The notes beneath the pieces are model-generated. The model did no database searches, was not told where the DNA came from, and was given only the letters and a program-made list of their open reading frames with translations. The position numbers and the translations under genes are program-made. Shown here one piece after another: positions 2,882-36,500 of a DNA stretch of 64,000 nucleotides (positions are counted from its first letter, which is position 1; each line of letters starts with the position of its first letter). Source of the stretch: an uncultured Acidobacteriota bacterium (GTDB taxonomy: Bacteria > Acidobacteriota > Blastocatellia > RBC074); assembly GCA_963796275.1 (NCBI GenBank), contig CAWCKY010000001.1:1088001-1152000 (forward strand), written 5' to 3'.

Positions 2882-2885
2882 GTTT

Positions 2886-6053: not shown

Positions 6054-6207
6054 AATGGGATAAATGGGATAGTCATTGGAGCCCCGGTCACGGTGAGCGA
6101 CCAATGTTAGTAGATGGAGAATCCTGGGATCGGTACCAAGCCTACTAAAACTGACAAAGGGCTTTTCCGGTCCTATTACAATCGCGACGAGGTTAGGAGG
6201 TGAATCA

Positions 6208-7008: not shown

Positions 7009-7272
7009 GAAGAAACCTCGGCATCGGCTATGTAGTCCTTAAACGGCCTCCGGTAATGTTTAGCAATGGAACGATTTTGGTCGTTTTCAAACTTATTGTT
7101 TAATGGCACGTCCGCCAGCGCTATTCATTTCATCTGGCTTTCCCAACGAGCGTAAGCTCTTTGAGATGATGAAGGCGACTCTGCGATATTCATAAACATG
7201 GGTTACATGGGTGGATAATTTCGCAATTTCACGTGAGCACGAAAAGCCCAATAGGTTGTGGAGTCAAAGCCC

Positions 7273-9072: not shown

Positions 9073-9202
9073 TGCTATACGCCGCGAAAATCCTCATCCG
9101 ATTTTCAGCGCTTATTCTCAATTGTCGTGAAGGCTGAGATGGCCTCTAGAGATGGAGGCCACGTCGTGTTTTAACAGCGAAATTAGATATCAGAGATGGG
9201 TT

Positions 9203-11603: not shown

Positions 11604-11650
11604 CCAGAGCTGATCCGCCATTTGTGCCAACGATGTTGATAGCCAGCGCA

Positions 11651-17604: not shown

Positions 17605-18711
17605 ATGAGTGTTGCGACAGGAGACCTGTCCGTCAGAGCGCAAGAGGCGAGGGCGCAGCTCGATGCCCACGTGCGCGAGATCATCGAGTGGCACTTCAAT
17701 CCGGATACGGGTTGCCCGTTCTGGATCGACTTCGCGAAGAAGCTGGGTTGGGATCCGAGAAGCGAGGTCCGGTGTTTTGATGACCTGAAAAAATTGCCGC
17801 CCTTTGAGGACGAATGGTTGCGCGGCGGTCCGGTGCGCCGGTGGCTGCCGAAGGGGTTCGCCGGCAAACCGCTCTTCGTCTTCGAGACCGGCGGCACGAC
17901 CGGAGTGCCGAAGAGCCGCCTGGCCATCGATGACTTCCGAACTGATTACGAGATGTTCAGCCGCACGCTCCCCGATCAATATTTTCCCGCGGGAGCGAAC
18001 TGGCTGATGCTCGGGCCCTCGGGACCGCGCCGCCTGCGGCTTGCGGTGGAACATCTGTGCCAGCACAGGGGCGGGATATGCTTTTCGGTTGACCTCGATC
18101 CGCGTTGGGTCATCAAACTGATCAAGTGGGGAGAGTTCGAAGAGCTGGAGCGATACAAAGCACACGTGATCGATCAGGCGATCACGGTTCTCGGAGCCGG
18201 GCACGATATTCGCTGCCTGTTCACTACGCCCAAGCTGCTCGAGGCGCTCGCTGAAGAACTCGAAAACCGGGGCACGAGCATCAAGACATCGGGCATCACG
18301 GGCATCTTCGCGGGCGGCACGGAATTCACGCCTCAGTACACGCGGTTCGCCATTGAAGAATTGCTGGGCGGGGGCGTATACCTGACTCCGACATACGGTA
18401 ATACGCTCATGGGACTTGCCTGCTCTAAGCCGGTGACCCCGGAGGAGGGTTACAAGATCAGCTACTTTGCGCCGCAGCCCCGTGCCGTTATCGAAGTAGT
18501 CTCTTTCGATGATCCAACCCGAGTCGTGGAATACGGCGAGACGGGAAGGGTGCAGCTCACTACGCTGACACGGGAGACTTTCATCCCGAGGTTCCTGGAG
18601 AGAGATGAGGGCGAGCGAGAGCGGCCCTGCGACAAATATCCGTGGGACGGCGTGAGCGGCGTGCGCCCATTCCGCAAGCTCGCCGCCCAGACGACCGTGG
18701 GAGTTTATTGA
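17605..18711 (+). CDS. EhpF/GriC-like adenylate-forming enzyme (PaaK-related)
   Basis: WHF...GCPFW, ETGGTTG.PK loop, DLDPRWV, TTP, GGTE, VEYGE.G, ERD and terminal GVY match my recollection of phenazine-pathway EhpF. Confidence 0.8.
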   Translation: MSVATGDLSVRAQEARAQLDAHVREIIEWHFNPDTGCPFWIDFAKKLGWDPRSEVRCFDDLKKLPPFEDEWLRGGPVRRWLPKGFAGKPLFVFETGGTTGVPKSRLAIDDFRTDYEMFSRTLPDQYFPAGANWLMLGPSGPRRLRLAVEHLCQHRGGICFSVDLDPRWVIKLIKWGEFEELERYKAHVIDQAITVLGAGHDIRCLFTTPKLLEALAEELENRGTSIKTSGITGIFAGGTEFTPQYTRFAIEELLGGGVYLTPTYGNTLMGLACSKPVTPEEGYKISYFAPQPRAVIEVVSFDDPTRVVEYGETGRVQLTTLTRETFIPRFLERDEGERERPCDKYPWDGVSGVRPFRKLAAQTTVGVY

Positions 18712-18898: not shown

Positions 18899-20339
18899 AT
18901 GAAAATACTCAATATTCCAATTCTGAGATGGGGTCAACCTTACAATAGTTTGGACAGAGAAGACGTGGTGCATTTCGTCACTGGCGAAACGCTGGCTCGG
19001 GTGAGCCAGGCGAACACCGGGCTACTGGGCCGTGACATACGTCACGCCGAACGCGCCCGAAATGCGCTGACCGCGATTCCGGTCTCGGAACTGATCGCAA
19101 TGATGAAGAAGGCGGCCGATTTATATCTTCATTCGACACTTCCGATGGGAGATGGGGAGCAAAGTCCGGACGACTTCGCCCGCCAGCAGTCCGCCAGCAC
19201 GGGATTACCAGAGCACATGTGCAAAGCCAACATGAGCAAGAACCACTTCGTGCTCTCGAATATGGAAAAGATACTGGATTCGCTGACTCGAGGATTGGAT
19301 TTGAATATCCTGACGCGCGGATACGGGGTCGAGTCTCGCGGAGTTACAGTCAGCTATCAGGTTCAGGCGCCCGTTCTAGGTTTGGTGCTGCCATCAAACT
19401 CTCCGGGCGTCCATACTCTGTGGCTGCCGGTGATCCCGATGCAGATCGGGCTGCTCCTGAAACCGGGTCCTCAAGAGCCGTGGACACCCTATCGAATGGC
19501 CGCCGCATTTACCGCGGCCGGCGTTCCCAAAGAGTCGATCGCCATCTATCCGGGCGGCGGCGAGATGGGTGCCGAGGTCCTGCGGCGATCCAATCGCACG
19601 ATGATCTTCGGCGGCACCGCGACGGTTGAACGGTATCGCGGCGACACACGCGTCCAGGTGCACGGACCAGGTTTTAGCAAAATTCTGCTGGGCGACGATG
19701 TGGTGGATGACTGGGAGAAGTATCTCGACGTGATGGTAGACAGCATATTTCTCAATAGCGGTCGCGGCTGCATCAATTGCTCGGGCGTCTGGGCCTCGCG
19801 TCACACGAAGGAGATCGCCGAGGCGCTGGCCGAACGAATCGGACCAATAGAGCCGAAGCAACCTGAGGATCCGCAGGCGAGCCTCGCCGCGTTCACCGTC
19901 CCTGGAGCCGCAAAAGCCATCTGGAAGAGCATCGAAACGGGATTGAACGCTGGGGGAACCGAACACGTCACCGCCAAATTCGGCCCGCGGCTGGTGGAGA
20001 AACAGCGCTGCGGATATCTGAGACCGGTCGTGGTCCATTGCGACTCACCAGAGACCGCGCTCTCCAACACCGAGTTCATGTTCCCCTTCGTCAGCGTGGT
20101 CCGGTGCCCGCAAAGCGAGATGCTGAATCGGGTCGGTCCAACATTAGTGGGCAGCGCAATTACAAACGACGAAAAATTCCAGCGGCAACTGATCGATGCG
20201 ACACACATCGACCGGTTGAACATCGGACCCGGTTCCCACGATCCAACTCGACTGGCTGCAGCCACACGAGGGGAATATAGTCGAGTTCCTATTTCGGCCG
20301 AGGGCATTTCAGGCAAAACAGGAAAAAGTAGCAGTTTAA
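18899..20339 (+). CDS. Aldehyde dehydrogenase-fold protein (EhpG/GriD/LuxC-like), one-base frameshift near 20229
   Basis: LPSNSPG, LKPG, FGG, HGPG.SK, NSGRGCIN catalytic Cys, EFMFP; the shifted frame gives a plausible end VPTIQLDWLQPHEGNIVEFLFRPRAFQ, stop at 20339. Confidence 0.8.
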
Positions 20340-21209
20340 AAGAGTGGATCGGTCCAACGCAGGCAGGCCCCGCAATCAAAAACGACGGAAAGTTCCGGCG
20401 GCTGGTCGATCCGACACACATAATCCGCCTGAACCCGGGTCAGTGGCTATCATTCGGAGCAGTAGCGGGGAGAATTGTGGAATTCTTGGTCCGTCAGGGC
20501 ATTTCATGCCAGGCGGGTATAAAACGACACACATTTAACTCAATACACAAAAAACAAGAACTCAGAAATAGATCAACATTCAGCAGCCTGGGTGCGTCTG
20601 ACTCTATTTCTATCATTGTTCTTTCCTCATTCTTTGATATTCGCGATCTAAATCACAATCCTTTTATTTTTAGCTATTTGCGATAGCACTTTAGCTTCGT
20701 GGTCAATAAGGCGCGTGTTCCTGCCTTCAAAAATTCAACGTGTGGCATGAGGCTACTCTCAATTTTGAATTTTTAAAGGAGTGTGTCGAAATTATCCTTT
20801 AACCATTCTTTTTTTAACTTCTGCCCACTTTTTCAGCGACCACGAGAGATACTGAAAGCATTAAATTAAATAAAGTTATCGCCAGCGATTACACTGACTC
20901 GTTTCGGTAAATATAGGTACTGCAGGGTTTGCCGATTCTTCCCAGGGCACGGCCTGTAACTTTGGGGATTAGCTGGCCAGGCGGATGGATGTGTCAGTGT
21001 GACTGGCATCCGGGTTGCTGGGTAAACGGGGAATTAATAGTTTTACTCACAAATAGCTTACCTAACCCAGCAAGCTTCGCTCTCTCTCTAAATAGAGGGC
21101 TAGAAGAGGTCTGTTCAATAGGTAGATATAGATTAGAAGGCAGAGCTGGTCAAGAGGCGCAGTTAGGAACCTGACGATTAACAACTAACCACGCGAGGTG
21201 AAAATAAAG

Positions 21210-23007
21210 ATGTCCACGAATATCAGTCCGCCGCAGCCGACGAGTACGTCCCGGTCATTAGTCAACATAGCTTCAAAAGAAGAAACGCTCAGGCAGCAGC
21301 TGGCGGAAGAACGCGCTCGCCTGGCTCGTGAGATGGGTATAGAGGAGCAGCAAAAGCAGCAATTCAAGCGGCCGGTCGAGAATCCGTTCACTAAAAGCCA
21401 GCGCGAGCACACCACGCTGCTTTTCGGTGGGCTCACCTGGAAGCACGAACAGCTGGTTCATGGCGCCCTGGAAGGGCTGGGGTATAAGTGCGAGGCGATT
21501 CCGACGCCGAATGTGTCCGCATTCCAGTTGGGTAAGGAATATGGCAATAACGGCCAGTGCAATCCAACCTACTTCACGGTCGGGAATCTGGTGCAATTTC
21601 TGCAGGGGCTCGAAAATCAGGGTCAATCGCGCCAGGATATTATCGATAATTACGTCTTCTTCACGGCCGGGGCGTGTGGTCCCTGCCGGTTCGGAATGTA
21701 CGAAGCCGAGTACCGTCTCGCGCTGCGAAATTCCGGTTTCGACGGTTTCCGGGTCATGCTCTTTCAACAGTCGGGCGGATTGAACCAGTCGGAAGCCGAA
21801 GCCGGATTGGAGATGAACGTAGACTTTTTCCTCGCCATCCTCAATGCCCTCAATATGGGCGACCTTATCAATGACGCGTGCTATCAGATTCGGCCATACG
21901 AGGTAAACCCCGGCGAGACGGACGCTGTGATGAAGGAGTGCATGGATTACCTGCACGACGTCTTCAAGAGTCACCGGAAGTTCGCGCTGGATAACACGAC
22001 CGCCGGTTTCCTCAAGAATCTGCCGATCGGAGACACTGCCGAATATATCGGTAAGTTTCTCGATCAGCTTTTTGGCACCGAATACCAGGACGCATTCAAG
22101 ATAGTCGGTGAGAAGCTGGCGCAGATCAAAGTTGACCGGACGCGCGCCAAACCGATGGTCAAAGTGACCGGCGAGTTCTTGGCGCAGACGACCGAAGGCG
22201 ACGGTAATTTCAATATGTTCCGCTTTCTCGAGGGCGAGGGCGCACAGGTGCTGGTCGAACCGATCGGGACCTGGATTATGTACCTGATGCATCAGGCCAA
22301 GCAGCAGAAGAAGGATCGCAAGGGGGTCAACGAGAATGAGGCGATGCCGGCGGCCTGGCGCATCGACAAGCGTATCAAGAACGAACTGAGGACCGAAGAA
22401 ATCTTTGGCGCAGCTGACGCTGGCCGAGGCCATCTTCAAGCGTGAGTGGAACCGGCTGCGGGAGACTCTCAACTATCTGCCGCACGATCTGACCGACCAG
22501 TATGAGCTCCAGCGGATGGCGCATCCCTTCTACAACTCGCGCGCCGCGGGCGGTGAAGGGCACCTGGAGGTCGCCAAGAATATTTATTACTCGAACAAGG
22601 ACCTCGCGCACATGGTCCTTTCGCTCAAGCCATTCGGATGCATGCCTTCGACGCAATCGGACGGAGCGCAGTCTGCGGTCGTCAACCTCTACAAGGAAAT
22701 GATCTACCTGCCGATCGAAACATCGGGTGAGGGCGAAATAAATGCCCACAGCCGCGTGCAGATGGCATTGGGCGAAGCGAAGGTTAAATGCAAGCAGGAG
22801 TTCGCGCGCGTAATCGAAGAGACCGGTATGACGGTCGAGGCGGTGCGCGAGTATGTGGCCGGCCATCCGGAGCTGGAGAGCGGTCTCTATCACGTCCCGC
22901 ATTACAAGGGGATCGTCGGGACGGCGGCGAACTTCGTCAAGCATGTGTCGGAATTGATGGCCGCGGATAAACGCGCGCATGTGGCGACCAATGCTGCTGC
23001 TCATTAA
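21210..23007 (+). CDS. 2-hydroxyacyl-CoA dehydratase-like Fe-S subunit (PlsR-like), frameshift near 22400
   Basis: QCNPTY, GACGPCRFGMY, VTGEF and KPFGCMP motifs across ORFs 21198-22445 and 22405-23007; GAGGTG RBS before ATG 21210. Confidence 0.8.
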
Positions 23008-23264
23008 ATGCGAGTGAGCGCATTGAGAAAGGTGACCAGGGGAATATTGGCCGGGGGGTGGGGGCCGCAAGGTGGCCGGGTGGTGGAGCGAAGGTATTCC
23101 TGGTTACTGGCATATGAAAGTCGCGGAGCCCTGTAGGGGTGTGATTACTCCTAATTGCGCTTCTCAGGGCTGGTCGAAATTGGAACATCTTCCAGGGCTG
23201 CGCGGTGCTTTGCTCCTGGCTATTAGCTTGTGCCCCTTTGGGGCTTCAATAGGTAGCATAGATA

Positions 23265-26200
23265 ATGAACCAAAATTACGAGAGGCTCTATATTGGACTG
23301 GACGTCGGTTCGACCACCGTCAAAGCGGTTGTGGTGGATCCGGTGAAGGACGAGATCCTGTGGCAGGACTACCAGCGTCACGAAACCAAACAGCCTGAGA
23401 AAGTCCTCGAATTTTTAGGGCGGATTGAAGCTGAATTTCCCATCTCAACAAGAGAACGTCCGCATATTCGTCACCGGTTCGGGCGGCGGCGGCCTGGCGC
23501 GTTTGATCGGCGCGAAATTCGTGCAGGAGGTCAATGCCGTCTCGCTTGCGGTCGAGAAGCTCTATCCCGAAGCCGGATCGGTCATCGAACTGGGCGGCCA
23601 GGACGCAAAGATCATCATCTTCAAGGAAGACCCTGAGACAGGGAAGAAGAAGAAGATCCCATCGATGAACGACAAGTGCGCGGGCGGCACGGGCGCGGTC
23701 ATCGACAAGATCAACGCCAAGCTGCGCATCCCGGCGGATAAGCTCTGCGAGATGGGTTATTACGGGTTGAAGCTGCACCCGTCGCGGGCAAGTGCGGCGT
23801 CTTTGCCGAGACGGACATCAACGGCCTGCAGAAGATGGGCGTGCCGCCCGACGAGCTGATGGCTTCGCTGTTCGAGGCGATCGTCGGGCAGAACCTTTCG
23901 GTGCTCACGCGCGGCAATACGCTGAGGCCTCACGTCTTGCTGCTCGGCGGTCCGAACACCTACATCCGCGGCATGGTCGATGCCTGGAAATACAACATAC
24001 CCAAGGTGTGGGAAGAGCGCGGCTATCCGCTGCCGGAAGGAGTCGATCCGAAGGAACTGATCAAAGTACCGCATAACGCGCAGTATTTCGCGGCGCTCGG
24101 CGCGGTCGAGTTCGGAAAATCGGAAGACGAGACTGTCGGGGTCTATCGCGGTCGCGCCGACCTCGAACACTACATCAACGTCGGCCGGCTCGAAGAGAAG
24201 AAGAAAGCCGGCGGCAAGGGGCTCTCGAGCAATCCGGATGAGCTGAGCTTCGTTCAAGGAAAAATACAAACACAAGAAATTCATCCCGGCCGTTTTTCAA
24301 TCGGGCCAGGTGATCGAGGGTTTTATCGGCCTCGATGGCGGCTCGACATCGACCAAGGCAGTGCTGCTCGACAAGGACCGGAATGTCCTGGTCAAGACCT
24401 ATCAGCTATCGAAAGGCAACCCGATCGAGGACACGAAAGAGGTCTTTGCGAAGCTGGAGAAGCAGGTGACCGATCAGGGGGCGGCGCTCAAGGTGATGGG
24501 CGTCGGCACTACCGGTTATGCCAAGGACATCCTGAAGGACGTTCTCGCGGCGGATGTCGCGCTGGTCGAAACCGTCGCGCACACCGAATCGGCTCTGCAG
24601 TTCTACAACGACGTGGACGTCATCGTCGATGTCGGCGGGCAGGACATCAAGCTGATCATTCTGAAGAACCGCCAGGTCAAGGACTTCAAGCTCAACACGC
24701 AATGCTCGGCGGGCAACGGCTACTTCCTGCAATCGACGGCCGAAGGTTTCGGCGATGAAGGTCGAAGAATACGCCGACATCGCCTTCGCCGCGCAAGTCG
24801 ATGCCGAATTTCGGCTACGGCTGCGCGGTCTTCATGCAGTCGGACATCGTCGATTTCCAGCGGCAGGGCTGGAAGCCGGAAGAGATCATGGCCGGGCTGG
24901 CAGCGGTGTTGCCGAAGAACATCTGGCTGTACGTCTCGCAGATTCCGAACATCGCGGGGCTCGGGACAAACTTCGTCCTGCAGGGCGGGACGCAGCACAA
25001 TCTGGCGGCCGTCAAATCGCAGGTCGATTTCATCGAGTCGCGCTTCAAAGGCAAGGAAATCCAGCCTCGACGTCATCGTCCACGAGCACTGCGGCGAGTC
25101 GGGCGCCATCGGCGCGGCGATCGAAGTCGATCAGGCTCTGGGGCAATGGGAAGCAGTCGAGCTTCATCGGTTTGGATAAAGTGGGGCAGGTCAGCTACGA
25201 CACGCACCGCAATGAGAACACGCGCTGTTACTTCTGCAAGAACAAATGTCTGAGAACTTTCATCGACGTGAAGGTAGTGGGTGCGCCTGTTGAAGAGCAG
25301 GAGCAGCCGCGCAAATCGAAGATTCCGATCCTGCCGGGCGTCAAGCGGTTGATCGTCGGCAACTCGTGCGATAAGGGATTGGTCGAAGACGTCAACGATA
25401 TGAAAGTTATCAAGAAGGGGATGGATGAAGTCAAAGCTGCCAACCCCAACTTCGTCGAGGTCGCGGCCAAGGCGGTCTGGCGCAGCTTCAACCCGCCGAA
25501 TGTCGCCGATCCTCCGCACAAGTTCGCTCTGACTCAGACGCAGAAGCAGCGCAACGAACTGGTCAAGCGGCGCGCGAAGATGCGCATCGGCATTCCGCGC
25601 GTGCTCAACCAGTATTCGGTCAATCCGCTCTTCTCGGCATATTTCGAGAGCTTGGGCGTACCGCCGCAGAACTTAATCTATTCGGATTACACGACCGAGC
25701 AGCTCTACAAGGAAGGCGCGAAGCGCGGAGCGATCGATCCGTGTTTCCCGTCGAAAGTGGGCATCCCGCACGTGCATAATCTGCTCCACGTGCATCACAA
25801 GAAGAAGCCGCTCGATATGATCTTCTTCCCGATGATCGATGCCCTGCCATCGGATTTATTCAATACGCTATCGAGCCGCGCCTGCCCGACGGTGACCACA
25901 ACGCCGGAGGCCGTCAAAGCCGCGTTCATCAAAGAGGGCAATCTCTTTGATGAGATGGGGATCAAGTATCTCAATCCGATTTTGAACATCGATAAGCCGC
26001 GTTTTCTCGAGAAGCAGATGTACGAGGCCTTCAAGGACATTCTTGGTCTGACGCAGAACGAGCATCACCGCGCCATCGAGGAAGGGCTCAAGGCTCTCGA
26101 CAACTTCTACAATGTGCAGCTACGCGGCGCGGCGCGCGAGGCGCTCAATCAGCTCGAGGCTGAGGACAAACTCGGCGTAGTGGTGCTGGCCCGGCCCTAT

Positions 26201-26807
26201 CACAACGATCCCGGCCTAAATCACGAGATCCTCGAAGAGTTCCAGAAGCTCGGATATCCGGTCTTCACCATGGATTCGTCTGCCGATGGATGACGACATC
26301 CTTTGGCGATTGTTCGGCGACGATGTGCGCGCCGGAATCATCAAGCATCCGATGGATATTCAGGATGCGTGGAAGAACTCATATTCGGAGAATACCAGCC
26401 GCAAGGTCTGGGCGGCCAAATACACGGCGCGCCATCCTAATCTGGTCGCGCTCGAGTTGTCTTCGTTCAAGTGCGGTCACGACGCGCCGATTTACACGGT
26501 AGTCGAAGAGACCGTTCAGAATTCGGGCACGCCGTATTTCTGCTTCAAGGATATCGATGAGAACAAGCCGACCGGCTCGATCAAGATTCGCGTCGAGACA
26601 ATCGGTTATTTCCTCAAGCGATATCGCGAGGACATGATCAAGAACAAAAATAAAGTGAAGACGCTGGAAGATCGCATGGCCGAGTACGAGCGGATGCTGC
26701 GACTGCAGCTGGAATTGGAAGAGAAGACCCAAGCATCAGAGTTTGGTAAATCGCTTCCGGTGCTGCCGGTGAATGTCTCGAACGAGCATCACATCGGAGC
26801 CGATTGA
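23265..26807 (+). CDS. CoA-substrate activase: two BadF/BadG/BcrA/BcrD ATPase domains + DUF2229 (PlsA/Ger-like), multiple frameshifts
   Basis: GLDVGSTT, ELGGQDAK, NDKCAGGTG; GLDGGSTS, DVGGQDIK, NTQCSAGNG, GCAVF; CYFCKNKC; IGIPR, CFPSK, CPTV, RPYH, FKCGHD; pieces spread over about 8 overlapping ORFs. Confidence 0.82.
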
Positions 26808-26811
26808 GGCC

Positions 26812-26876
26812 TGTTTTCAGTTTTTTCAGCGGGCCTTGGTTTTGAAACTGAAAACTGAAAACTGAAAACTGAAACT
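26812..26876. repeat. Inverted heptamer array (TTTTCAG / CTGAAAA)
   Basis: AAACTGA x4 with complementary upstream units. Confidence 0.7.
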
Positions 26877-26878
26877 TT

Positions 26879-27160
26879 TTGGGTATGCGTGAATCGGAAA
26901 AAGTCATGTTCCAGATCTATCGTGAAGCGAGCTACAACCGCCGCTACAAGGTGGTCTACTTCACTGAGCTGAATGAACATAACAAAGAGACGGAGATTAA
27001 TCGCGCGATGGCCGGCGACCATTATTTCGATGGCTTTCTCAAGGGGAATCACAAAGAGGAAGCCAAGGCCGTTATTGATCTGGTGCTCGCTCGCCTCAAC
27101 AACGGCGAGGCGGTTCGCCCCGATGAGATAGAGAGGGAGTTGGATGGTTACCTTGCCTGA
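26879..27160 (+). CDS. Small hypothetical protein in the radical SAM cluster
   Basis: ~90-aa ORF, co-oriented, protein-like composition (YFTEL.EH...EI.RAMAG). Confidence 0.7.
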   Translation: MGMRESEKVMFQIYREASYNRRYKVVYFTELNEHNKETEINRAMAGDHYFDGFLKGNHKEEAKAVIDLVLARLNNGEAVRPDEIERELDGYLA

Positions 27161-27303
27161 ATCAGGACGGGACAGGTAGTTGTTGTAAGCATTCATCCTT
27201 GAAGCCATTAGAGTCATTCATGTCGTCGCAGACGACATACAGATAACGATGCCAGCTACTGGGAGCAAGCGCTAGCAGTAGTTGCAGAGGAGCTAAAACA
27301 GAT

Positions 27304-29397
27304 ATGCATAAACCTATAAAATATTTTGAAAAGGGCCTGACATACGCGGCGGGGGCAGCCTGGGCCGTGTTTGAACGACTCAATAGCATCAGGCCGAACC
27401 CTTCGTTCACTCCGAAATGGTCCGACAAGCCGCTGCTCAAATCCTGGCAGAAAACCAAGCCCACCCTCGGCTGGCCGCGCACTACTGACAGCCTTTGTCC
27501 GAAATGCATCCCCGAGATCCGTCAAAAGATCCTCGACGGTGACATACCGGTGGACATCCTGCGTAATGATAGAGTAGGCGAGATTAAGGCTCAGATAGTT
27601 GAGCGCGATGGCAAGATCCTCATGATCAAGGATTGTCCGGTCCATGGCCATTTCGAAGATGTGATGTCGATCGATCCGACGATGTTTCGCCATCTTGAAG
27701 AAGCCTTCCCCGGTCGCGATATTCGGGCGCACAACGACGAGAAGCTCCACGATCACGGATCGAGCACGATCCAACACGGCCGCGGCGCGGTGCTGACCAT
27801 CGACCTGACCAACCGCTGCAATATGATGTGCGATCCGTGCTTTATGGACGCGAATCAGGTCGGCTTCGTCCACGAGCTGAGCTGGGAAGAGATCAAGACG
27901 ATGCTCGATAACGCCATCTCGATCAAGCCGCGCCGCCAGCTATCGGTGCAGTTCTCGGGAGGCGAACCGACTCTCTCGCCCCACTTCCTCGACGCCATCA
28001 GATACTCGCGCGAAGTGGGTTACAACAGCGTCCAGTCGGCGACCAATGGGATCGAATTCGCCAAGAGCAAAGAGTTCTGCCGCAAGGCTGCCGAGGCGGG
28101 ACTGCGTTATGCCTATCTTCAGTTCGACGGCATCGGCAATGCCGCCAACAGCCACCGCAAGGTCGGCAACCTTTTTGATGTGAAGCTGCAGGCGATCCAG
28201 AACCTTCACGAGGCCGGCGTCGAGGTGGTCCCGGTCACGACGATCGTCAATGGGATCAATAATGAACAGGTTGGGCGCATCATCGAATTCGCGCTCGACA
28301 ACCCGAAGATCATCTCACTCTGCTCCTTCCAGCCTGTTTCATTCACCGGCCGCGACGAAGAAATCACGGATGAGCGGAGACACGCTCAGCGTTACACGCT
28401 CTCGCACCTGGCGCACGATGTTAAGAAACAAACGGGGCTGGGCGAACCCGTTCGCGACTGGTTCCCGATCTCGTTCATGGGCACATTTTCGGATTGGGCC
28501 GATCTCGTGCACGGGCCGGATCATGATTGGGGCCAGTTGAGCTGCGGTTGCCATCCGAATTGCGGCGTCGGCATGGCCGTCATGGTCGATAAGCAGACGA
28601 AAGAGGCCGCACCGCTCACTGCTTTCTTGAACATAGACCGGTTGGCTAAAGATGTGCAAAAGGTCAATGACGCGGGCCGCGGTAAATTTCTGTCGGTTCT
28701 AGGTATGGCGCTGGCCGTCGCGAAAAATTACGATCCCTTCAAGGCGACCACGCACTTTCATCTGTGGAGCCTGCTCATGAAATTCGACAAGGGGTTCGGC
28801 GCGAGCGGGCGTAATTACGGCAATGTCAATGGAAATCGAACGATGGAGGACATCGAGAAGCGGCGCAGCGACCGCTGGAACATTCTCTTCCTCGCCGGGA
28901 TGTGGTTCCAGGATCTCTTTAACTACGATTTCCGACGCACTGAAATGTGTATCATCCCTTACGCGACGCAAGAGGGCGAGATCAGTTTCTGCGCGTATAA
29001 CACCGGCGTCGGCTGGCGGCAAATCGTCGAGAAGATGCATATGACCGCGACGCTGACCAAATGGTACGAAGAACACGGGCGCCACGAGATTTTCGCGGGC
29101 GGGAAGAGCGTCAATCTCAATGCCGTCGATCATAAGATGTTGCTTCGCGAAGAACTGATAACTCAGGATGTTCAGCACGATCTCGACCGACTTGGTATCG
29201 CCAAGAATTCCCGCGAAGAGCAGATCAAAGCGCGCGCTGAGAAGCTGCGCCAGCAAAAAGAGAACGAGCGCATGGCGCAACTCTATCGCCAGCACATCTT
29301 GAAAGAGCCGGAAGAAGAGAAGCCGAAGCTGGTGCAGATCGAAATGGGCGGTAAGCCCAAGGTCAGCGAGGAAGTCGCTTCAGTTTCAGGAGATTGA
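27304..29397 (+). CDS. Radical SAM protein, tetraether synthase (Tes/GDGT-MAS, MJ0619-like) homolog
   Basis: N-terminal SLCPKC...KDCPVHG rubredoxin-like site; DLTNRCNMMCDPC; QFSGGEPT; YLQFDG; FQPVSFTGR; CHPNCG; C-terminal CIIPY...SFCAYN auxiliary-cluster motif. Confidence 0.85.
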   Translation: MHKPIKYFEKGLTYAAGAAWAVFERLNSIRPNPSFTPKWSDKPLLKSWQKTKPTLGWPRTTDSLCPKCIPEIRQKILDGDIPVDILRNDRVGEIKAQIVERDGKILMIKDCPVHGHFEDVMSIDPTMFRHLEEAFPGRDIRAHNDEKLHDHGSSTIQHGRGAVLTIDLTNRCNMMCDPCFMDANQVGFVHELSWEEIKTMLDNAISIKPRRQLSVQFSGGEPTLSPHFLDAIRYSREVGYNSVQSATNGIEFAKSKEFCRKAAEAGLRYAYLQFDGIGNAANSHRKVGNLFDVKLQAIQNLHEAGVEVVPVTTIVNGINNEQVGRIIEFALDNPKIISLCSFQPVSFTGRDEEITDERRHAQRYTLSHLAHDVKKQTGLGEPVRDWFPISFMGTFSDWADLVHGPDHDWGQLSCGCHPNCGVGMAVMVDKQTKEAAPLTAFLNIDRLAKDVQKVNDAGRGKFLSVLGMALAVAKNYDPFKATTHFHLWSLLMKFDKGFGASGRNYGNVNGNRTMEDIEKRRSDRWNILFLAGMWFQDLFNYDFRRTEMCIIPYATQEGEISFCAYNTGVGWRQIVEKMHMTATLTKWYEEHGRHEIFAGGKSVNLNAVDHKMLLREELITQDVQHDLDRLGIAKNSREEQIKARAEKLRQQKENERMAQLYRQHILKEPEEEKPKLVQIEMGGKPKVSEEVASVSGD

Positions 29398-29568
29398 GTC
29401 ATCTCCAGGTGAGTTACAAAAAGTTCTTGACGAGGTTTGTTCTGATTTATGCCCGTGTTTTTGGGGCTTCGAGTTGAACTAACCAGCTTTTAAACTCACT
29501 TCCAGAGTATTTTTTGGGATTTATTACACAACCAACTTGCTATCGAGAACAGGAAAGGAGCACTAGGC

Positions 29569-30858
29569 ATGCTTGAAGAAGCGGGCGTAGACAATCAGGC
29601 AACACAGGCGCCATCGACACCGACTTATAGAGTCGATGTTCCGCTCTATACGCTCTTGCAAAAGACATCTGCCGGCAGATCGACATTGCCGCAGAGGGAT
29701 GAACCGGCGACTCTTCCGGATCCGGTCTTCCCCATGTTAACCAGGACCACGGACCTCAAGCGATCGGGGTTCATTTATCACGCCAATAATGGCGTGCGCG
29801 CCTTCCGGCGCTGGATGGTTCCATACATCCAATCGCGCATCTATGCCGATGAGTTCCGGCCATTGCTTTCGTACCTCTTCACTGAATGGAAGTGCAATCT
29901 CGATTGCCATTACTGCTGGTCGTACAATAACAACATCAAAGGAATGTCGGAGGATGTTGCCCGCCGTTCCATCGACTGGCTGCATTCGGTCGGCTGTCGC
30001 GTAATCGCGATCATGGGCGGCGAGCCGCTTCTGCGGCCGAAGTTCATTCACAAGATCGTCTATTACGGAACGAAGCGCGGATTCTTTGTTTATCTGCCGA
30101 CAAACGGTAGATTGATGAAGCCCGAGGTGACCGATTGGCTGGGCGATGCGGGCGTCGCCGCGATCAACTTCGCCGTCGATTGCGTGGACGAGAAGCCGGG
30201 TCTGCCCAAAATACTCAACAAAATCAGGTCTAATTTCGACTATCTGGTCAAGGTTCAACGGAAATACGGCTACATGATGGTCTTCAACATCAACATCTGC
30301 CGTAACAACATGGATGACGTCAAAGAGCTGACGGAGATCGCGCACGACAACGGTATCTCGACCGATTATCACATCAACGAGACGCCGATGCTCGAGCAGG
30401 ATCACTTCAAGCACTATAATGACAATCCCACTTATCTGCGGCCGGAAGATTTTCCGAAGGTCGATGAGCTGCTCGATTACCTGATCGACAAGAACAAGCA
30501 GGGCTACATCATGGTCAACTCCAAGGCGCACCTGGAGCGTATGAAACTCTTCATGCGCGGCCACGTCGAGCCGTGGAATTGCCGGGCGGGCCATAATTCG
30601 CTGATCATTCGCACCGACGGAACGCTCGCGCCGTGCTTCCCGATGTACTCCGCGACCGTGGACTGGGGTACCATCGAGAATCATAAGTTCGATAATAAAC
30701 AGCTCGACGTGATGAAGAAGGACTGCGTCAAGCATTGCCTCTCGACGTGCCAGTATGTGCTCGGTCATTACTATAACAACCAGACCGTTCTGCGCTGGAT
30801 CGTCAAACAGGCATTGCATGGCATGAGCGGTAATACCACGGCTATAGCGCAAACGTAA
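29569..30858 (+). CDS. Radical SAM protein with SPASM/twitch-like C-terminal Cys cluster
   Basis: CNLDCHYC, MGGEP, CRAG...DG..APC, C..HCLSTC; AGGAG RBS. Confidence 0.9.
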   Translation: MLEEAGVDNQATQAPSTPTYRVDVPLYTLLQKTSAGRSTLPQRDEPATLPDPVFPMLTRTTDLKRSGFIYHANNGVRAFRRWMVPYIQSRIYADEFRPLLSYLFTEWKCNLDCHYCWSYNNNIKGMSEDVARRSIDWLHSVGCRVIAIMGGEPLLRPKFIHKIVYYGTKRGFFVYLPTNGRLMKPEVTDWLGDAGVAAINFAVDCVDEKPGLPKILNKIRSNFDYLVKVQRKYGYMMVFNINICRNNMDDVKELTEIAHDNGISTDYHINETPMLEQDHFKHYNDNPTYLRPEDFPKVDELLDYLIDKNKQGYIMVNSKAHLERMKLFMRGHVEPWNCRAGHNSLIIRTDGTLAPCFPMYSATVDWGTIENHKFDNKQLDVMKKDCVKHCLSTCQYVLGHYYNNQTVLRWIVKQALHGMSGNTTAIAQT

Positions 30859-31054
30859 TAAATCGAGAATACGTCGATTTCAACTAGATGAATGTCAAGA
30901 CAAGCCACAGAGCCGCAGAGACGCTGAGAAGGAAAATAGGGGATAGTCGGTCGGGCTATCTCGATGGTTTTATCTTCACCGTGTCTCTGTGCTACTGTGG
31001 CTTATTCTTGGTATCCACCCAAATTAATTAATAGTTCGGTCAAAGGAGGGATGG

Positions 31055-32074
31055 ATGAAAGTTGCTGATGTATTTCGTGGTTGGGGACGTATTCTGAGCG
31101 GATATCGACCGATGCTGTCGATCGAAATTACGCGCGAGTGTCCTCTACGCTGTCCGGGATGTTACGCATACCAGCCGGAGCATTTGGGGGATGTCGGACC
31201 GCTCCGATCGCTGGCGGACTACAAGGGGCAGGAGTTGATCGATAGAGTACTTGAGCTGGTGCGCCGGCATCGTCCGCTCCATCTTTCGATTGTGGGCGGC
31301 GAGCCTTTAGTGCGGTTCAGGGAATTGAACGAATTGCTGCCTCGACTGGATGAGATGGGTATCGAGATCCAGCTCGTCACAAGCGCGGTCAGGCAAATAC
31401 CGCCGGAATGGACGAAGATCAAGGGGTTGCACCTGGTCGTATCGATTGACGGCCTGCAACCGGACCACGACCGCAGGCGCAAGCCGGCTACTTACGACAA
31501 GATCGTGCAGAATATAGTGGGACACTCTATCATCGTTCATTGCACGATTACCCATCAGATGATGGTAAAAAATAATGCAGGAGAGAAGTACTTCGAAGAG
31601 TTCCTCTCTTTCTGGTCGGCGCGCCCTGAAGTTCGGAAGGTCTGGTTCAGTATCTTTACTCCTCAAATAGGAGAAGAAGCCGAAGAGATATTATCGCCGG
31701 AGGAGAGATCGTCGGTATTGGCTGAGATAGCGCGACTGCGGCCGCTCTTCCCCAAACTGTATATGCCGGATGTAATCCTGCAGGGGTATCGCAAGCCTCC
31801 GCAATCTCCGGATGAATGTATCTTCTCGCGCACAACATTGAGCATCACGGCCGACCTGAACAGCCGGATATCTCCGTGCCAGTTCGGCGGAAACCCCGAT
31901 TGTTCACAATGCGGCTGCATAGCATCTGCCGGGTTGGCGGCCATAGGCGAGTATCAATTGTTCGGAATTCTACCGGTGAGGTCGATCTACTTTGCGTCGG
32001 ACCGCATCGGCCAGACGGCATCTCGTATATTTAATGGAAATGAATCTGCAGGAACTGAAAAAGTACGCAATTGA
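31055..32074 (+). CDS. Radical SAM protein
   Basis: CPLRCPGC, VGGEP, SIDG, C-terminal CIF...PCQFGGNPDCSQCGC. Confidence 0.9.
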   Translation: MKVADVFRGWGRILSGYRPMLSIEITRECPLRCPGCYAYQPEHLGDVGPLRSLADYKGQELIDRVLELVRRHRPLHLSIVGGEPLVRFRELNELLPRLDEMGIEIQLVTSAVRQIPPEWTKIKGLHLVVSIDGLQPDHDRRRKPATYDKIVQNIVGHSIIVHCTITHQMMVKNNAGEKYFEEFLSFWSARPEVRKVWFSIFTPQIGEEAEEILSPEERSSVLAEIARLRPLFPKLYMPDVILQGYRKPPQSPDECIFSRTTLSITADLNSRISPCQFGGNPDCSQCGCIASAGLAAIGEYQLFGILPVRSIYFASDRIGQTASRIFNGNESAGTEKVRN

Positions 32075-32324
32075 ACATCGAATCGAGATCAAGTTCGGAA
32101 ATCCTCATACTGGCCACGAATGCCTGATCAACAGCAGGGGGCTGGTAAATATTCCGGGCGAAGATAAAGATTTTCGCGTCGAGGATGTGCTGGATGCGGC
32201 GGAAAAGTTCGAGATCGTCAGTGGCGCGAGCGCTCAACATCACAATCGAGATGCGATGAGCAAGATTATTGCTGATGCCTCTGCAGGGAAGGCATCAGGA
32301 GCGCACGAGGAAGAGGATGACTGA
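32040..32324 (+). CDS. Small hypothetical protein with acidic tail
   Basis: MNLQELKKYAIEHRIEIKF... overlapping the upstream gene end; ends EEEDD. Confidence 0.65.
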   Translation: MNLQELKKYAIEHRIEIKFGNPHTGHECLINSRGLVNIPGEDKDFRVEDVLDAAEKFEIVSGASAQHHNRDAMSKIIADASAGKASGAHEEEDD

Positions 32325-32327
32325 GCA

Positions 32328-32412
32328 TTTTACATTGTTCATTTAACATTGTTCATTTGTCATTTAGTAGCTGTTATTGGGTCAAGATAAATGAACAATA
32401 AACAATGACAAT
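32328..32412. repeat. Inverted heptamer array (CATTGTT / AACAAT)
   Basis: Degenerate 7-mer arms between cluster genes. Confidence 0.65.
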
Positions 32413-32444
32413 GCTGCCCTCCCCCGATCAACAAACAACCAACA

Positions 32445-33435
32445 ATGAAGAAGCTTTCTTTTATAGTCCGCGAAGCAGCATTTATTACCCGCGGACTATT
32501 ATCGACCAAGCACCCGATCCTTGCGCACCTCGTCCCGATGCGGCGATGTAACCTGTCGTGCGGGTATTGTAACGAATACGATAAGACATCCGACCCGGTG
32601 CCGCTTGAGGTAGTAAAAGGCCGGATCGATAAGCTGGCTGAACTCGGCACCTCGATTGTTACTCTCAGCGGCGGCGAACCGATGCTGCATCCGCAGGTTT
32701 TTGAGATATTCGCGCATATTCGATCGCATGGCATGATCGCGGGGCTGATCAGCAACGGGTACTATATGACCAAAGAGCGGATCGAGAAGTTAAACGCCGC
32801 CGGTCTCGAATACCTGCAAATCAGCATCGACAACGTCACTCCCGACGAAATATCGCAGAAAAGCCTCAAGGTACTCGAACGTTACCTGGGTTATTTGTCC
32901 CAATACGCTAAATTTCACGTAAGTATCAATTCGGTTATTGGCGGCGGCATCAAAAATCCGGAAGACGCGCTGACAGTGGCGCGCCGCGCCGTTGAATTGG
33001 GATTCAGCAGTTCACTAGGCATAATTCACGATCGCACCGGACAGCTCAAGCCGTTGAGTGAAAAAGAGGCGAAGATTTACGAAGAGTTGAAGAGTTTCGG
33101 GAAAAAGAGCTGGACGCGGTTCAATCGTTTTCAGGATGATCTGGCTTATGGCAGGCCGCACGATTGGCGATGCCGTGCCGGAGCCAGGTATCTTTATATC
33201 TGCGAGAATGGGTTGGTTCACTATTGCTCGCAGCAGCGGGGATTTCCCCGGAATACCGCTTGAGAGTTATTCTTTGGAAGATATCAAGCGCGAGTTTTAT
33301 AGCGAAAAGCCTTGCGCGAAGATGTGTACCATCGCATGCGTTCAACAGGTTGCGATGATCGATAACTGGCGCTCGCCTCAGCAACAAGATAACCCTCCTA
33401 GTCAGCTTGATACTGAATCGGCTTATGGGTCGTGA
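32445..33435 (+). CDS. Radical SAM protein with SPASM/twitch-like domain, frameshift near 33248
   Basis: [32 protein letters not shown]; continues in another frame as GIPLE...[10 protein letters not shown] to the stop at 33435. Confidence 0.87.
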
Positions 33436-33558: not shown

Positions 33559-36500
33559 CTAGTAGTCTTCAGGACTTGTCAGTTCTATTTGCAGAGTGCC
33601 AATACTAGATTCCACTGAGAAAGTCGCTGCATATTCCAGCCCGGAAGACAATATCGCCTGAATATCTGACTGGTCTCGACTTGCAATTTTACCCACTAGT
33701 TCATTATTCACCCAAATGCCGAAGGAAGATAACTCAATATCTTCAATAGGGCGTAGAGAGGCTGCATCCTGCGATAACTTTGTTAATTCTGTTTCTGCTT
33801 CGATAAAAGTTTTTCCACTAGTGAGTAGCTCCACTGCTGGCCCGCCTTTTTGATCACGGCAAAATTCCAGCAACAGTCTAAGCTCGGCAAAAGATGCTGA
33901 AAAGAGTTGTTGCCACTGGGTTAGGCTAAGCTGACGCAACCACGTAAAAACGTCCTGCTGTGCATTTGCTGTAAACCAGCATTTAGCTATTCGCATTGCC
34001 AGGGTTCTCGAAGTCATTCCTTTTAACATAAGTTCTGTCGCTGTAGTGTTATCCACACCCCAACGCACATACGCAGGTAAGATTCCTGGAATAACGCAGA
34101 TAACACCTTCAGCCTCCAAGAATTGATTAGTCCATGCGACTATCGTGCCGAAAACCCAGGGAAAAAATCCCTCAAAATATTGGGATATCAAATCGCCGAG
34201 CTGCTCGAAGCGGTAATCAATATCCTTGATGAGTTGTAGGTGTTTATCGGCAAGTTCTACAATCTCAGCTCCTTGTATCCAATCAATTAGTACATCTTCG
34301 ATAGAGATGGCAATTGCTGTTCGATGCTTGCCCCCTCTTTTCGCATATACCGACCGTTGCGGGGCTTCTGGCAGCATAAGTATTTGGTCCAGACGTCCAT
34401 CTGCTAGGATATATCTTATCAACCTAATGGTATCTTTAGGAAGATCGTCAACTGTGATCGAGTTAGCAAGAGATCGAGAAATGTGCTCAATTTTGCTAGC
34501 CGAGCTTACCGATGTACCGGCGGCTGACCAGCGTCGACGTAGGTTTTCATCTGTTTTCCTATATCGATCAAGGGTTAGTTCTGCGAGTTCAAGCCATTTA
34601 TTTTTATGATCGTCGGTTAGCTGAACCCATGCAAGAGTGTGGCTCAGTACATTGCTAATCCGCTCGATAGTTAAGTGTTCATGGTCAATCTTTTCCAATT
34701 CAGATGCAATGAACCACACAAATGACAGGAAATTTGAGACAGTATTACTCGCGATTTGGAAGAGTGCGTCCTCAGTTGTGCGTTGGATATCTTCGAAATG
34801 GGAAAGCTCGTTTAATGCATGCTCTGTTGCTAGCATGGAGAGTACCTGTGTGTCATCATTTTTCGGATCTAATCGCTCGAAATCTGTTGTATTAGGTCTG
34901 GACTGTAGAGCCAAAACGACAATACCCTCAGTTTCTTTAGTAGCACGTCCAGCTCGCCCAATAATGTTTATCAATTTGGATCCTTTAATATATTCATTGT
35001 ATCCGCTCGCGCTGTATGATCCCTGTGAGGCTATTACAACCGATCTGACAGGAAGATTCACACCTTCTCCCATGGTAGTTGTTGCTACCAAAAATTTTAT
35101 ATGACCATTTACCACTGCTTCTTCTATAGCAACCCTTATTTCGCTTGGGAGAGAACTATGATGATAAGCAACTCCATTCTGGAGAACCTCCCACAGTGGG
35201 TGTTTGGCGCCTAATCTCGCTTCAACTAAATCAAGTATGCCTTTGAGTTGATAGTGGCTTGAAAGTGGCTGAGTCTTTGCTATTGCACGTGCCATTCTGG
35301 CTGCTTGCGGGCGCGTACCCTCGATGATCAGCACAGAACCTGCCTTAGCTAGGTGAATAATGATTGGTAAGAGCGATTTGTAAAATGGAGTGCTGTGATC
35401 ATCTTCCTTTTTTCTATTGCCACTGGTATCAACTATGAGGGCTAGCTGGCCTATTGGTTTAGTTGTTCTAATTGAACTTGTTTCTCCTGTTGCTGATAAT
35501 CTTACGTCTAGCTGTCCAAAGAGGGGATGTATTACTCGAAGCGGATGGGTAGGCGAGCGTCTCTTTATCTCTGTTCTGGTATCCCAATTCACGTTGGTGG
35601 AGTAAATCGTGTGAATCCGCCTAGGTCCCCGCCAATCTGAGGCTCGATGTATAGCGGTATTGCCGCCTTCCTCCAGCCATTTTACAAAGTGAGCCTGGTT
35701 ACCAACTGCAGCCGATATTAAGATTATACGTTGGCTGTTGCCGTTCGTCGCGTAATGAAGGTAGGCGAGATCTTGCTCTAATATCCAGCCACGCTCCGGG
35801 TCATTAATGTTATGAACTTCATCAAAAATGAACAACCCTACCTCGTTTAAAACTCTTGTGCTGTCAGTGCGAAGTAGGTAGGACAGCCGCTCTGGGGTCA
35901 TAACTTCGACTTTCGGGGCAGAGGTCGGGAACTCCCTCAACCAACCTCCTTCTGGCAACCCATCTACTATCTCTTTTCCGAAGAAGCGAAGGCGTGACTC
36001 GAGAGACACTCTTACCTCTCGACATAAACTTCTTGTTGGTGCCACATAGTAAACTGACGTTCGATTTTTAACTAAATGCGACGCGATAATTAGTTGTGCC
36101 AATAGTGTCTTGCCGCTGCTGGTGGGCGTTGATAGGAAAAGCCGCTTCACTTCCGAGGAAAGTGGAGATGGATCATTGGGTCCACTAGGCTTAAGCAACT
36201 CAATCTGTGGCGGCCAGAATGTCAAGACTTTTGGGCGGCCCATTACAAAGGCCTTTGTCAAATTGATTGGAGTATCAGGTGGAAGCAGCGTCCAGATAGA
36301 GCTTTTGTCCAGGTCGCTCGATAAATCAAGTAAATGAGCTGCTATCCAACGTGAGATTTGATCATCTGTCGATGGCTCTGCGATAATGGCCTTCTGCAAT
36401 GTATGTCGCGCCTTTTCGAGAGCCCCTCGATTACCATATACCAAAAATGTCATCAGGTCTTTTGTTCCTAGTGCGACACCTGCTGCCGCGCCGTATGGCG

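Follow-up and report, generated by a model that had tools for sequence, protein, structure and literature searches.

We report here on a row of eight genes in a stretch of 64,000 nucleotides (hereafter the window) from an uncultured bacterium of the Acidobacteriota (class Blastocatellia, lineage RBC074; GenBank assembly GCA_963796275.1, contig CAWCKY010000001.1, positions 1,088,001 to 1,152,000 of the forward strand), and on its possible role in the synthesis of ether-linked, membrane-spanning lipids. Branched glycerol dialkyl glycerol tetraethers, or brGDGTs, belong to the molecular proxies most often used for past temperature and pH, and the genes responsible for them are not established. 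The source assembly measures 9.46 Mb in 7 contigs, with a completeness of 94.7 and a contamination of 5.2.

Gene order at the locus

The genes, designated A, B, C, Tes-like, R2, R3, S and R4, all lie on the forward strand between positions 21210 and 33435, separated by spacers of 70-260 nt (Table 1). An earlier description made from the letters alone (the sequence-only reading) had announced eight co-oriented genes at this place; positions and strand are confirmed, but as assembled A, B and R4 are not open frames, since ten single-base indels, of which that description says nothing, interrupt them. In a Pfam search of the window pieces, BcrAD_BadFG was found on four pieces of B together with DUF2229 (160.5 bits), Radical_SAM in the Tes-like protein, R2, R3 and R4, all four being putative radical S-adenosylmethionine (SAM) enzymes, and Zn_ribbon_HMPTM in the Tes-like protein; the same search of A, C and S found no family.

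The GC content of the cluster (50-57%) is close to that of the genome (54.3 +/- 2.5%) and gives no sign of recent transfer. A scan for regulatory sites returned 10 promoter-like sites, with 9.7 expected from shuffled sequence, and 16 terminator-like sites, with 13.5 expected, so that operon boundaries cannot be drawn from it. In the spacer between B and C, public soil contigs rise sharply in depth and often end loosely at 26828-26884, and this pile-up and break-off indicates that the element found there is a low-complexity repeat.

The A-B-C module

The domains of B are best seen in the intact ortholog from the relative G014, where PF01869 (BcrAD_BadFG) scores 241 bits in two stretches, PF09989 (DUF2229) 159 bits and TIGR00241 200 bits; the previous assignment of B as a double ATPase joined to DUF2229 is thus borne out. 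The ATPases match HgdC and HadI, with hits to the PDB activators 1hux and 4eht (E about 2e-18). An alignment of 61 sequences of the kind found in the window (type 1) with one protein of each of two paralogous systems (types 2 and 3, see below) revealed cysteines common to all three types: two in each ATPase domain (C168/C207 and C510/C549), the CxxCxxxC motif at 683/686/690, and C853, C900 and C1096 in DUF2229 and the tail.

A has no Pfam or NCBIfam match, and no PDB chain is found from its sequence at E <= 1. Its AlphaFold model, computed from 32 sequences, is of moderate quality, with a predicted local distance difference test score (pLDDT) of 77.6. The top 11 Foldseek rows for this model all belong to the family of 2-hydroxyacyl-CoA dehydratases, benzoyl-CoA reductases and double-cubane proteins (HAD/BCR/DCCP), with E values from 2e-3 to 1e-2. 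Furthermore, VIA aligned 273-286 residues of seven HAD/BCR/DCCP chains with residues 62-534 of the model at Z 7.8-9.6, among them 6eno (9.6), 3o3n_B (9.5), 7yyl_A (9.2) and 9gai_B (8.6). Three cysteines of A are invariant (C117, C159 and C478) and a fourth, C156, is kept in at least 90% of the rows. As judged from the model, A has the HAD/BCR/DCCP fold with cluster-type cysteines. Its former label of a dehydratase-like Fe-S subunit therefore holds only for the predicted fold and the four conserved cysteines, and finds no counterpart in Pfam or NCBIfam. A comparison of the A and B profiles was weak (probability 1.8%, E 0.027 over 52 columns) and pairs C117 of A with C853 of B.

C is conserved, with a mean column identity of 59% over 24 aligned sequences, and contains no cysteine. 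Its model has a pLDDT of 93.3; a Foldseek search of the PDB with it gave no match at E <= 0.001, and a search of the Atlas with C returned 'hypothetical protein' clusters only.

As in HAD/BCR/DCCP systems, A and B together would provide an ATP-dependent activator and a catalytic heterodimer. Unlike in these systems, B carries its activator in duplicate and joined to one half of the catalytic pair, A has no sequence-level match in the PDB, and there are no genes of a CoA-ester pathway near A-B-C. Domains and predicted folds, taken together, are in keeping with a PlsA/PlsR-like reductase that is driven by ATP and based on Fe-S clusters.

Relation to PlsA, PlsR and Ger

Four genomes labelled Bryobacterales or Solibacter carry two or three DUF2229 systems each, while the genome of the window (G000) and G014 carry one. 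We distinguish type 1, which consists of A, B and C, from two systems of the Bryobacterales: type 2, a 1066-aa protein of the BBD architecture (two BcrAD_BadFG domains, then DUF2229) followed by a 547-aa partner, and type 3, a single fused protein of 1406 aa. Between types 2 and 3 the identity is 38%. For A, matches are found to the type-2 partner (22% identity, E 4e-18) and to the type-3 tail (E 1e-10), with 20-22% identity overall; A would thus correspond to the PlsR-like part and B to the PlsA-like part. Judged against the type-2 and type-3 paralogs, which are the sequences compared here rather than PlsA, PlsR or Ger themselves, type-1 A-B-C is by sequence a separate deep sister subfamily: the module is 70-86% identical across many phyla, in contrast to the low identity with the Bryobacterales systems.

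B resembles the plasmalogen synthase PlsA/PlsR (Clostridium perfringens) and the glycerol ester reductase Ger (Thermotoga maritima, Desulfatibacillum alkenivorans) in having the BBD on one polypeptide, with A as the putative second, HAD-like catalytic part, and its cysteine sets are common with those of PlsA-like paralogs. Type 1 differs from PlsA/PlsR/Ger in that the partner comes first (A then B) and in its third conserved gene, the 90-aa C, and from Ger in having no detectable HGD-D segment (PF06050). In the text of PMC13159169, the architecture of Ger is given as BBDHDDH or BBDHDHDH, the BBD core is conserved in all alkyl-ether producers and the segment after it varies among producers; a bioRxiv text (10.64898/2026.06.23.733905) counts BBD-only proteins as Ger architecture. 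The proposal that A and B are PlsR- and PlsA(Ger)-like is accordingly upheld for the BBD architecture and for the homology of A with a PlsA-like partner and tail, and has to be qualified for a deep divergence, with about 25% identity in B.

Loci of Bryobacterales/Solibacter genomes with up to three PlsA-like systems were seen in G042 (L119, C1:1897000-1911000) and G043 (L120, C43:1-12000). With so many systems in one genome, the 'PlsAR/Ger homolog' of the literature is ambiguous.

The Tes-like enzyme

Residues 93-591 of the Tes-like protein align with residues 35-515 of 7tol_A, the archaeal tetraether synthase GDGT-MAS (E 1.1e-63), and the protein covers positions 2-483 of the 486 of the NCBIfam profile NF045702. 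Pfam recognises PF04055 (Radical_SAM) and PF23545 (Zn_ribbon_HMPTM). Ten cysteines of cluster type, C65, C68, C111, C172, C176, C179, C416, C420, C549 and C563, are kept in all 21 rows of a Tes-family alignment, including the three rows that pass the NCBIfam cut-off; C172/C176/C179 form the CxxxCxxC motif, and C65, C68 and C111 belong to an N-terminal Zn-ribbon or rubredoxin-like part. By sequence, the 697-aa radical SAM protein is a full-length Tes/GDGT-MAS homolog, in agreement with the label Tes-like of the sequence-only reading.

A FastTree tree of 21 chosen rows (the partial L032 and the truncated L048 were left out) separates three groups: canonical Tes (L041, L046 and L076; 546-580 bits on NF045702), acidobacterial clade A, with the window protein, and acidobacterial clade B (G015, G007b, G035, G026 and L070). 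Six other proteins of the two acidobacterial clades score 312-331 bits. Compared with Tes/GDGT-MAS (PDB 7TOL and 7TOM), the window enzyme shares the full-length alignment, the CxxxCxxC motif, the Zn-ribbon and four further cysteines; it differs by its lower score on NF045702, and by its place in an acidobacterial clade whose proteins are about 700 aa long and extended at the C-terminus by about 100 aa. Its substrate is expected to be a bacterial branched acyl or alkyl chain, not phytanyl. Activity has been reported for acidobacterial Tes homologs (Chen 2025, as cited in the text of PMC13023045).

R2, R3, S and R4

R2 scores 65.5 bits on Radical_SAM and carries a CNLDCHYC motif at residue 109; a SPASM domain is recognised in its G014 ortholog only, just above the cut-off (22.3 against 21.5 bits). 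It follows Tes in G001, G007, G008 and G014. In the text of PMC11214058 (Garcia et al. 2024), which describes tes-gms clusters of Acidobacteria and Planctomycetes, Gms is a SPASM/Twitch radical SAM protein of at least 400 aa that clusters with tes or mss. R2, with its 429 aa and probably of SPASM type, stands directly after tes and is a candidate Gms-like enzyme.

R3 has a Radical_SAM domain (40 bits), a Fer4_12 domain and a CPLRCPGC motif at residue 29; it is present in G001 and G007, and in L033 it stands directly after C. S has one cysteine; copies of it, 47-57% identical, were found in G001, G007, L029, L033 and L038. The R4 family occurs in 73 of 251 genomes sampled across the phylum (unpublished G092 included). 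R4 lies directly upstream of a clade-A Tes in six genomes of other families, and beside A-B-C in L035, L038, L084 and L095. Searches of the Atlas with R4 gave unnamed or generic radical SAM clusters only. A second, intact R4 paralog of the window genome (C3:1215077-1216219) was set aside, there being no lipid context around this copy.

The order after Tes varies. R2-R3-S-R4 is found in G000, G001 and G007; in G014, R2 is followed by a 557-aa B12-type radical SAM protein, which replaces R3 and S, and then by R4; G008 has R2 only; L029 and L038 have a CxxCxxCC protein and S. The B12-binding protein of G014 (L019, 3882-5555) occupies the position in which archaeal Gmm follows Gms, and it is possibly a lipid methylase. 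Its nearest homolog in the window genome was rejected as a relative of the cluster: it lies on contig C2 beside a squalene-hopene cyclase and is probably a hopanoid methylase, separate from the cluster. At locus L122 (G000:C2:609000-627000), a 502-aa radical SAM protein is encoded beside a squalene-hopene cyclase and a polyprenyl synthetase fusion; this is probably a hopanoid methylase locus.

Distribution and neighbourhood of the module

Tes-family genes are present in all 41 class-level genomes (including unpublished G004) and in 148 of the 251 genomes of the phylum sample (E <= 1e-60; including unpublished G068, G092 and G189). B is much rarer, with 14 of 251 in the phylum sample and 7 of 61 in family f1, to which the window genome belongs, where it is spread over 5 of 17 genera. 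Tes accompanies B in 13 of the 14 holders, against 148 of 251 overall (Fisher one-sided p 0.0055, a value that is overstated because relatives are not independent). Moreover, A-B-C-Tes is found in all seven B-holding f1 genomes, split over two contigs in G001 and G007.

A scan of named genomes with B of G014 returned at least 567 relatives, and the counts of loci given here refer to the best 80. These are 70-86% identical to the query, the G014 record itself excluded, and their labels include Blastocatellia (the closest ones), Terriglobia, Bryobacterales, Latescibacterota, Poribacteria, Nitrospinota, Miltoncostaeaceae, Limnocylindrales and others. In 75 of the 80 loci the gene directly upstream of B is A; the remaining five have less than 900 nt of contig on that side. 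C is found in 49 of the 80 A-B loci and is missing from most of those labelled Bryobacterales.

A Tes-family gene stands in nine of the 80 loci (L029, L032, L035, L038, L041, L046, L048, L070 and L076), where about 0.64 would be expected by chance, assuming 2 Tes copies per 5 Mb. A FastTree tree of B was built on 63 rows, without 20 of the 80 loci (L029 and L070 among them) whose B frames are incomplete; in it, the rows adjacent to Tes are spread over four separate well-supported clades. On the Tes side, all three subclades adjoin A-B-C: canonical (L041, L046 and L076), clade B (L070) and clade A (the family of the window). The physical clustering of ether-forming and tail-coupling candidates, which was the core of the sequence-only reading, thus recurs far above chance and in separate lineages.

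Taxonomy and the B tree agree only in part, rows labelled Blastocatellia, for example, standing beside rows labelled Actinomycetota. Of the B holders with labels from outside the Acidobacteriota, 15 were searched, and a Tes-family protein is encoded in 8 of them. Around A-B-C, three loci labelled Spirochaetia, Dadabacteria and Ignavibacteriales (L037, L043 and L045) agree almost entirely in gene order over about 20 kb, and the B proteins of the three group in a single tight clade. This suggests mislabelled bins or one lineage under three names.

Frame breaks in A, B and R4

The ten indels, nine of +1 and one of -1, fall in A (1), B (8) and R4 (1) and were placed by DNA alignment to the relatives G014, G001 and G007 (Table 1). 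The G014 orthologs are single frames of 595 aa (A), 1206 aa (B) and 334 aa (R4), and all nine A and B indels are absent from the three relatives. Public contigs from four runs were aligned over window positions 21200-27200, and none of the nine is found in them. A contig of 2707 nt (about 94% identical) covers 23485-26195 and shows six gaps, six indel sites lying in this stretch, and a 151-nt contig, otherwise identical, lacks the extra base at 26277. Because relatives and public contigs are free of the indels, the frame breaks are probably consensus or assembly errors, and the cluster is probably intact in the organism itself. Such polishing errors may arise where a very conserved gene attracts the reads of other taxa.

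Alternatively, the breaks could be real, A, B and R4 being recent pseudogenes in this strain and only Tes, R2 and R3 still at work. The ten indels are concentrated within the roughly 6.6 kb of A, B and R4, with none in the 4.7 kb or so of C, Tes-like, R2, R3 and S, and open reading frames (ORFs) elsewhere in the window are uninterrupted over 821, 1163, 933, 842 and 1133 aa, as judged in the window alone. The sites share no common motif; nine of the ten lie outside long homopolymers, which leaves room for real decay, and only that of R4 is within G/C runs. We nevertheless judge decay to be unlikely, though it keeps some weight. Nine of the ten changes are +1 insertions, there are no in-frame stops and no large deletions, and the pieces of A, B and R4 are still 80-91% identical to their orthologs. 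The identical 151-nt contig also argues against decay, as does the intact R4 paralog elsewhere in the genome. Furthermore, G008, the other assembly with few contigs (30), is likewise broken in A and B, whereas single frames are found in G001, G007, G014, G327 and G333, assemblies of 130 to 1,120 contigs.

Other features of the window

Two genes upstream of the cluster, encoding an AMP-binding/F390-synthetase-like protein and an atypical member of the aldehyde dehydrogenase family, were considered as cluster members and rejected, as neither ever adjoins the cluster in the relatives examined; on contig C4 there is a 66% paralog of the first. Farther upstream, a MacB-type ABC permease gene is split by 8.7 kb of DNA that encodes a group II intron reverse transcriptase, an integrase with helix-turn-helix (HTH) domains and two ORFs of no known family; residues 12-665 and 667-842 of an intact paralog match the two ends. 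Directly after the cluster lies a stretch of low GC (about 45%, against 54% in the genome), which may be a foreign or defence-type island. An IS630-like transposase follows in two overlapping frames.

Table 1. Position, strand and description of the cluster genes, their indels and other features of the window
Feature	Position	Strand	Description
Gene A	21210-23007	+	putative PlsR-like second catalytic subunit, predicted HAD/BCR/DCCP-type fold; ~595 aa if intact
A indel	near 22393		+1
Gene B	23265-26807	+	two BcrAD_BadFG ATPase domains, CxxCxxxC, DUF2229, ~170-aa tail; ~1180 aa if intact
B indels	near 23449, 23779, 24246, 24753, 24796, 25070, 25125, 26277		-1 at 23779, the other seven +1
B-C spacer	26808-26878		(GAAAACT)n run facing a T-rich inverted copy
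Gene C	26879-27160	+	conserved 93-aa protein without known family, no cysteine
Tes-like radical SAM	27304-29397	+	697 aa, intact; homolog of archaeal tetraether synthase GDGT-MAS
R2	29569-30858	+	radical SAM, 429 aa, intact; probably SPASM type; candidate Gms-like
R3	31055-32074	+	radical SAM, 339 aa, intact; accessory cluster member
S	32034-32324	+	small conserved protein without known family, 96 aa from ATG 32034
R4	32445-33435	+	radical SAM, ~330 aa if intact; frame broken here
R4 indel	33242-33246		+1
AMP-binding/F390-synthetase-like gene	17605-18711	+	not a cluster member
Aldehyde dehydrogenase-family gene	18899-20686	+	595 aa, atypical; not a cluster member
Split MacB-type ABC permease gene	2348-13561	-	ends: ORF 11573-13561 (matches residues 12-665 of paralog), ORF 2348-2881 (matches 667-842)
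Integrase with HTH	7273-9072		inside the split gene
Group II intron reverse transcriptase	9279-11219		inside the split gene
Low-GC stretch	33559-37853	-	1163-aa DEAD/Hel308-like helicase and 272-aa ORF without family
IS630-like transposase	42831-43996	-	HTH 43538-43996, DDE_3 42831-43592
Intact MacB-type paralog	46477-49005		

Discussion

The ether-forming step in Acidobacteria is described as unclear, and the formation of the sn-2 ether as enigmatic, in the text of PMC11868695, PMC8788747 and PMC13274423; PMC8788747 in particular leaves sn-2 ether formation unexplained. In this study we focus on a gene row in which a PlsA/PlsR-like reductase adjoins a Tes homolog. From its gene content and neighbourhoods, we consider it on balance probable that the row works as an accessory cluster of operon-like layout, which tailors membrane lipids into ether-linked, membrane-spanning forms of the iso-diabolic or brGDGT type.

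In the mechanism that we propose, the two ATPase domains of B would share a bridging [4Fe-4S] cluster bound by four conserved cysteines, and ATP would drive a low-potential electron into a catalytic pair, the DUF2229 half of B together with A, in the manner of 2-hydroxyacyl-CoA dehydratases, benzoyl-CoA reductases and double-cubane proteins. This pair would turn acyl esters of glycerolipids into ethers, as PlsA/PlsR and Ger do. Through the Tes-like enzyme, two alkyl chains would be joined at their omega carbons to give one membrane-spanning chain; R2 (SPASM type, possibly Gms-like), R3 and R4 may carry out further C-C or C-H modifications, and C and S would be small accessory proteins. The occurrence of three Tes subclades beside A-B-C and the triangle of A-B-C, Tes and R4 argue for one lipid pathway, and the large number of modules standing alone is in keeping with an enzyme whose products also include simple ethers.

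Several results weigh against this assignment. At the level of single proteins, the score of the Tes-like enzyme on NF045702, 326.8 bits, is below the equivalog cut-off of 450; B is only about 25% identical to the type-2 and type-3 proteins (E 1e-77 to 1e-81); HGD-D (PF06050) is not detected in B at E <= 0.01 or in A at E <= 0.1; and the reading is built on PlsA-like paralogs in place of characterised PlsA, PlsR and Ger. According to the text of PMC13159169, ether bonds are made by cultured SD4 strains in which Ger homologs were not detected, which bears on the window if its class is Blastocatellia/SD4, as labels of metagenome-assembled genomes suggest. At the level of genomes, B is found in none of the other families sampled in the class (f3 0/14, f4 0/3 and f6 0/2), the B holder G049 has no Tes at E <= 1e-60, and none of the 12 other Tes-encoding holders of the phylum sample has both genes on the same contig within 100 kb. 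Around the module, 71 of the 80 loci have no Tes-family gene, and of the 63 whose contig continues for at least 3.5 kb downstream of B, only 6 have one within 6 kb. Among 125 proteins flanking A-B-C in 14 loci chosen for diversity, a single LPG_synthase_TM protein is the only product of a lipid gene. Finally, 7 of the 15 holders labelled outside Acidobacteriota, one of them labelled a whole chromosome, have no Tes at E <= 1e-30. Since most modules are not beside Tes and these seven holders lack it, the module does not depend on Tes. The uneven spread of the frame breaks, discussed above, belongs on the same side.

These results would also suit a self-sufficient, horizontally spread A-B-C that acts as an ATP-dependent low-potential reductase on another substrate, its adjacency to Tes being due to shared regulation or chance co-transfer. 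In its favour are also the heterogeneous flanks of the 14 loci (sigma-54 activators, tetratricopeptide repeat proteins and housekeeping genes), the high identity across phyla combined with a B tree that partly disagrees with taxonomy, the distance of B from the other PlsA-like paralogs, and the presence among the structural neighbours of A of DCCP, whose natural substrate is unknown. We hold this to be rather improbable. Five differently arranged juxtapositions, involving three Tes subclades, stand against an expectation of about 0.64 loci, and R4 is linked to both A-B-C and Tes. Moreover, Tes is encoded by 8 of 15 non-acidobacterial holders, compared with 456 homologs in 13,919 bacterial genomes as given in the text of PMC8941075. 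An ether-forming enzyme would be useful without Tes, because simple mono- and diethers are also made.

A role of A-B-C as an ATP-driven electron source or reductive activator, which would keep the clusters of Tes, R2, R3 and R4 reduced under oxygen, is considerably less probable. B does possess its own double-ATPase 'activase', ATP-coupled electron injection is the general mechanism of the family and four radical SAM genes adjoin the module here, but A and the DUF2229 half of B keep the catalytic-subunit fold and the cysteines of substrate-converting enzymes, and most modules have no radical SAM neighbour. We know of no HAD/BCR/DCCP-type protein that serves as a mere reductase for other enzymes, which also counts against this role. 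That the downstream half is a natural-product cluster for ribosomally synthesised and post-translationally modified peptides, in which R2, R3 and R4 are SPASM-type maturases acting on precursors encoded by C or S, is very unlikely: the best NCBIfam match of R2 is indeed the ranthipeptide maturase PapB and two small conserved ORFs lie between the enzymes, but this match reaches 66 bits for a cut-off of 340 and every other maturase match is also far below cut-off, C is cysteine-free, confidently modelled and travels with A-B rather than with radical SAM genes, S has one cysteine, R4-Tes pairs occur without S or C, and the Tes-like protein is a full-length GDGT-MAS homolog.

For the lipid cluster that we favour, some elements have been published before. 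Tes homologs in Acidobacteria are described in the text of PMC8941075. A route with PlsAR, Tes and Grs is proposed for S. usitatus in PMC10087280, whose main text contains neither 'adjacent' nor 'gene cluster', and the text of PMC13023045, citing Chen 2025, associates the joint presence of Tes and Ger with brGDGTs and Tes alone with tetraesters. The idea of a Tes and PlsAR/Ger pathway and the tes-gms clusters of Acidobacteria are therefore already in the literature. We found no published text on a physical A-B-C-Tes cluster, although Halamka Fig. S10/Table S5, Garcia SI Fig. S15 and Sahonero-Canavesi table S21 may show one; the physical linkage of A-B-C with Tes, the distinct subfamily and the 90-aa partner protein appear to be new.

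Until now, candidate brGDGT genes were proposed from genome-wide co-occurrence alone, and a conserved row in which a PlsA/PlsR-like reductase and a Tes homolog stand together, and which recurs with three Tes subclades, is independent genomic support for the route through Tes and an ester reductase. Furthermore, the cluster singles out, for expression, one of three paralogous reductase systems together with a new 90-aa partner. Should the lipid role be confirmed, A-B-C would serve better than 'any BBD protein' as a metagenome marker of tetraether producers. As a tentative and doubtful extension, type-1 A-B-C could be the missing ester-to-ether reductase of oxygen-exposed soil and water bacteria, maybe including the sn-2 ether step required for diethers and tetraethers, and could constitute with a Tes-family enzyme the minimal set for branched tetraethers. 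If this were true, the three PlsA-like systems of Bryobacterales would split their work by glycerol position or by product (vinyl or alkyl ether). The metagenome-assembled genomes labelled Latescibacterota, Nitrospinota, Chloroflexota and others that hold near-identical modules together with Tes would then point to the brGDGT producers outside the Acidobacteriota for which geochemistry has long been looking.

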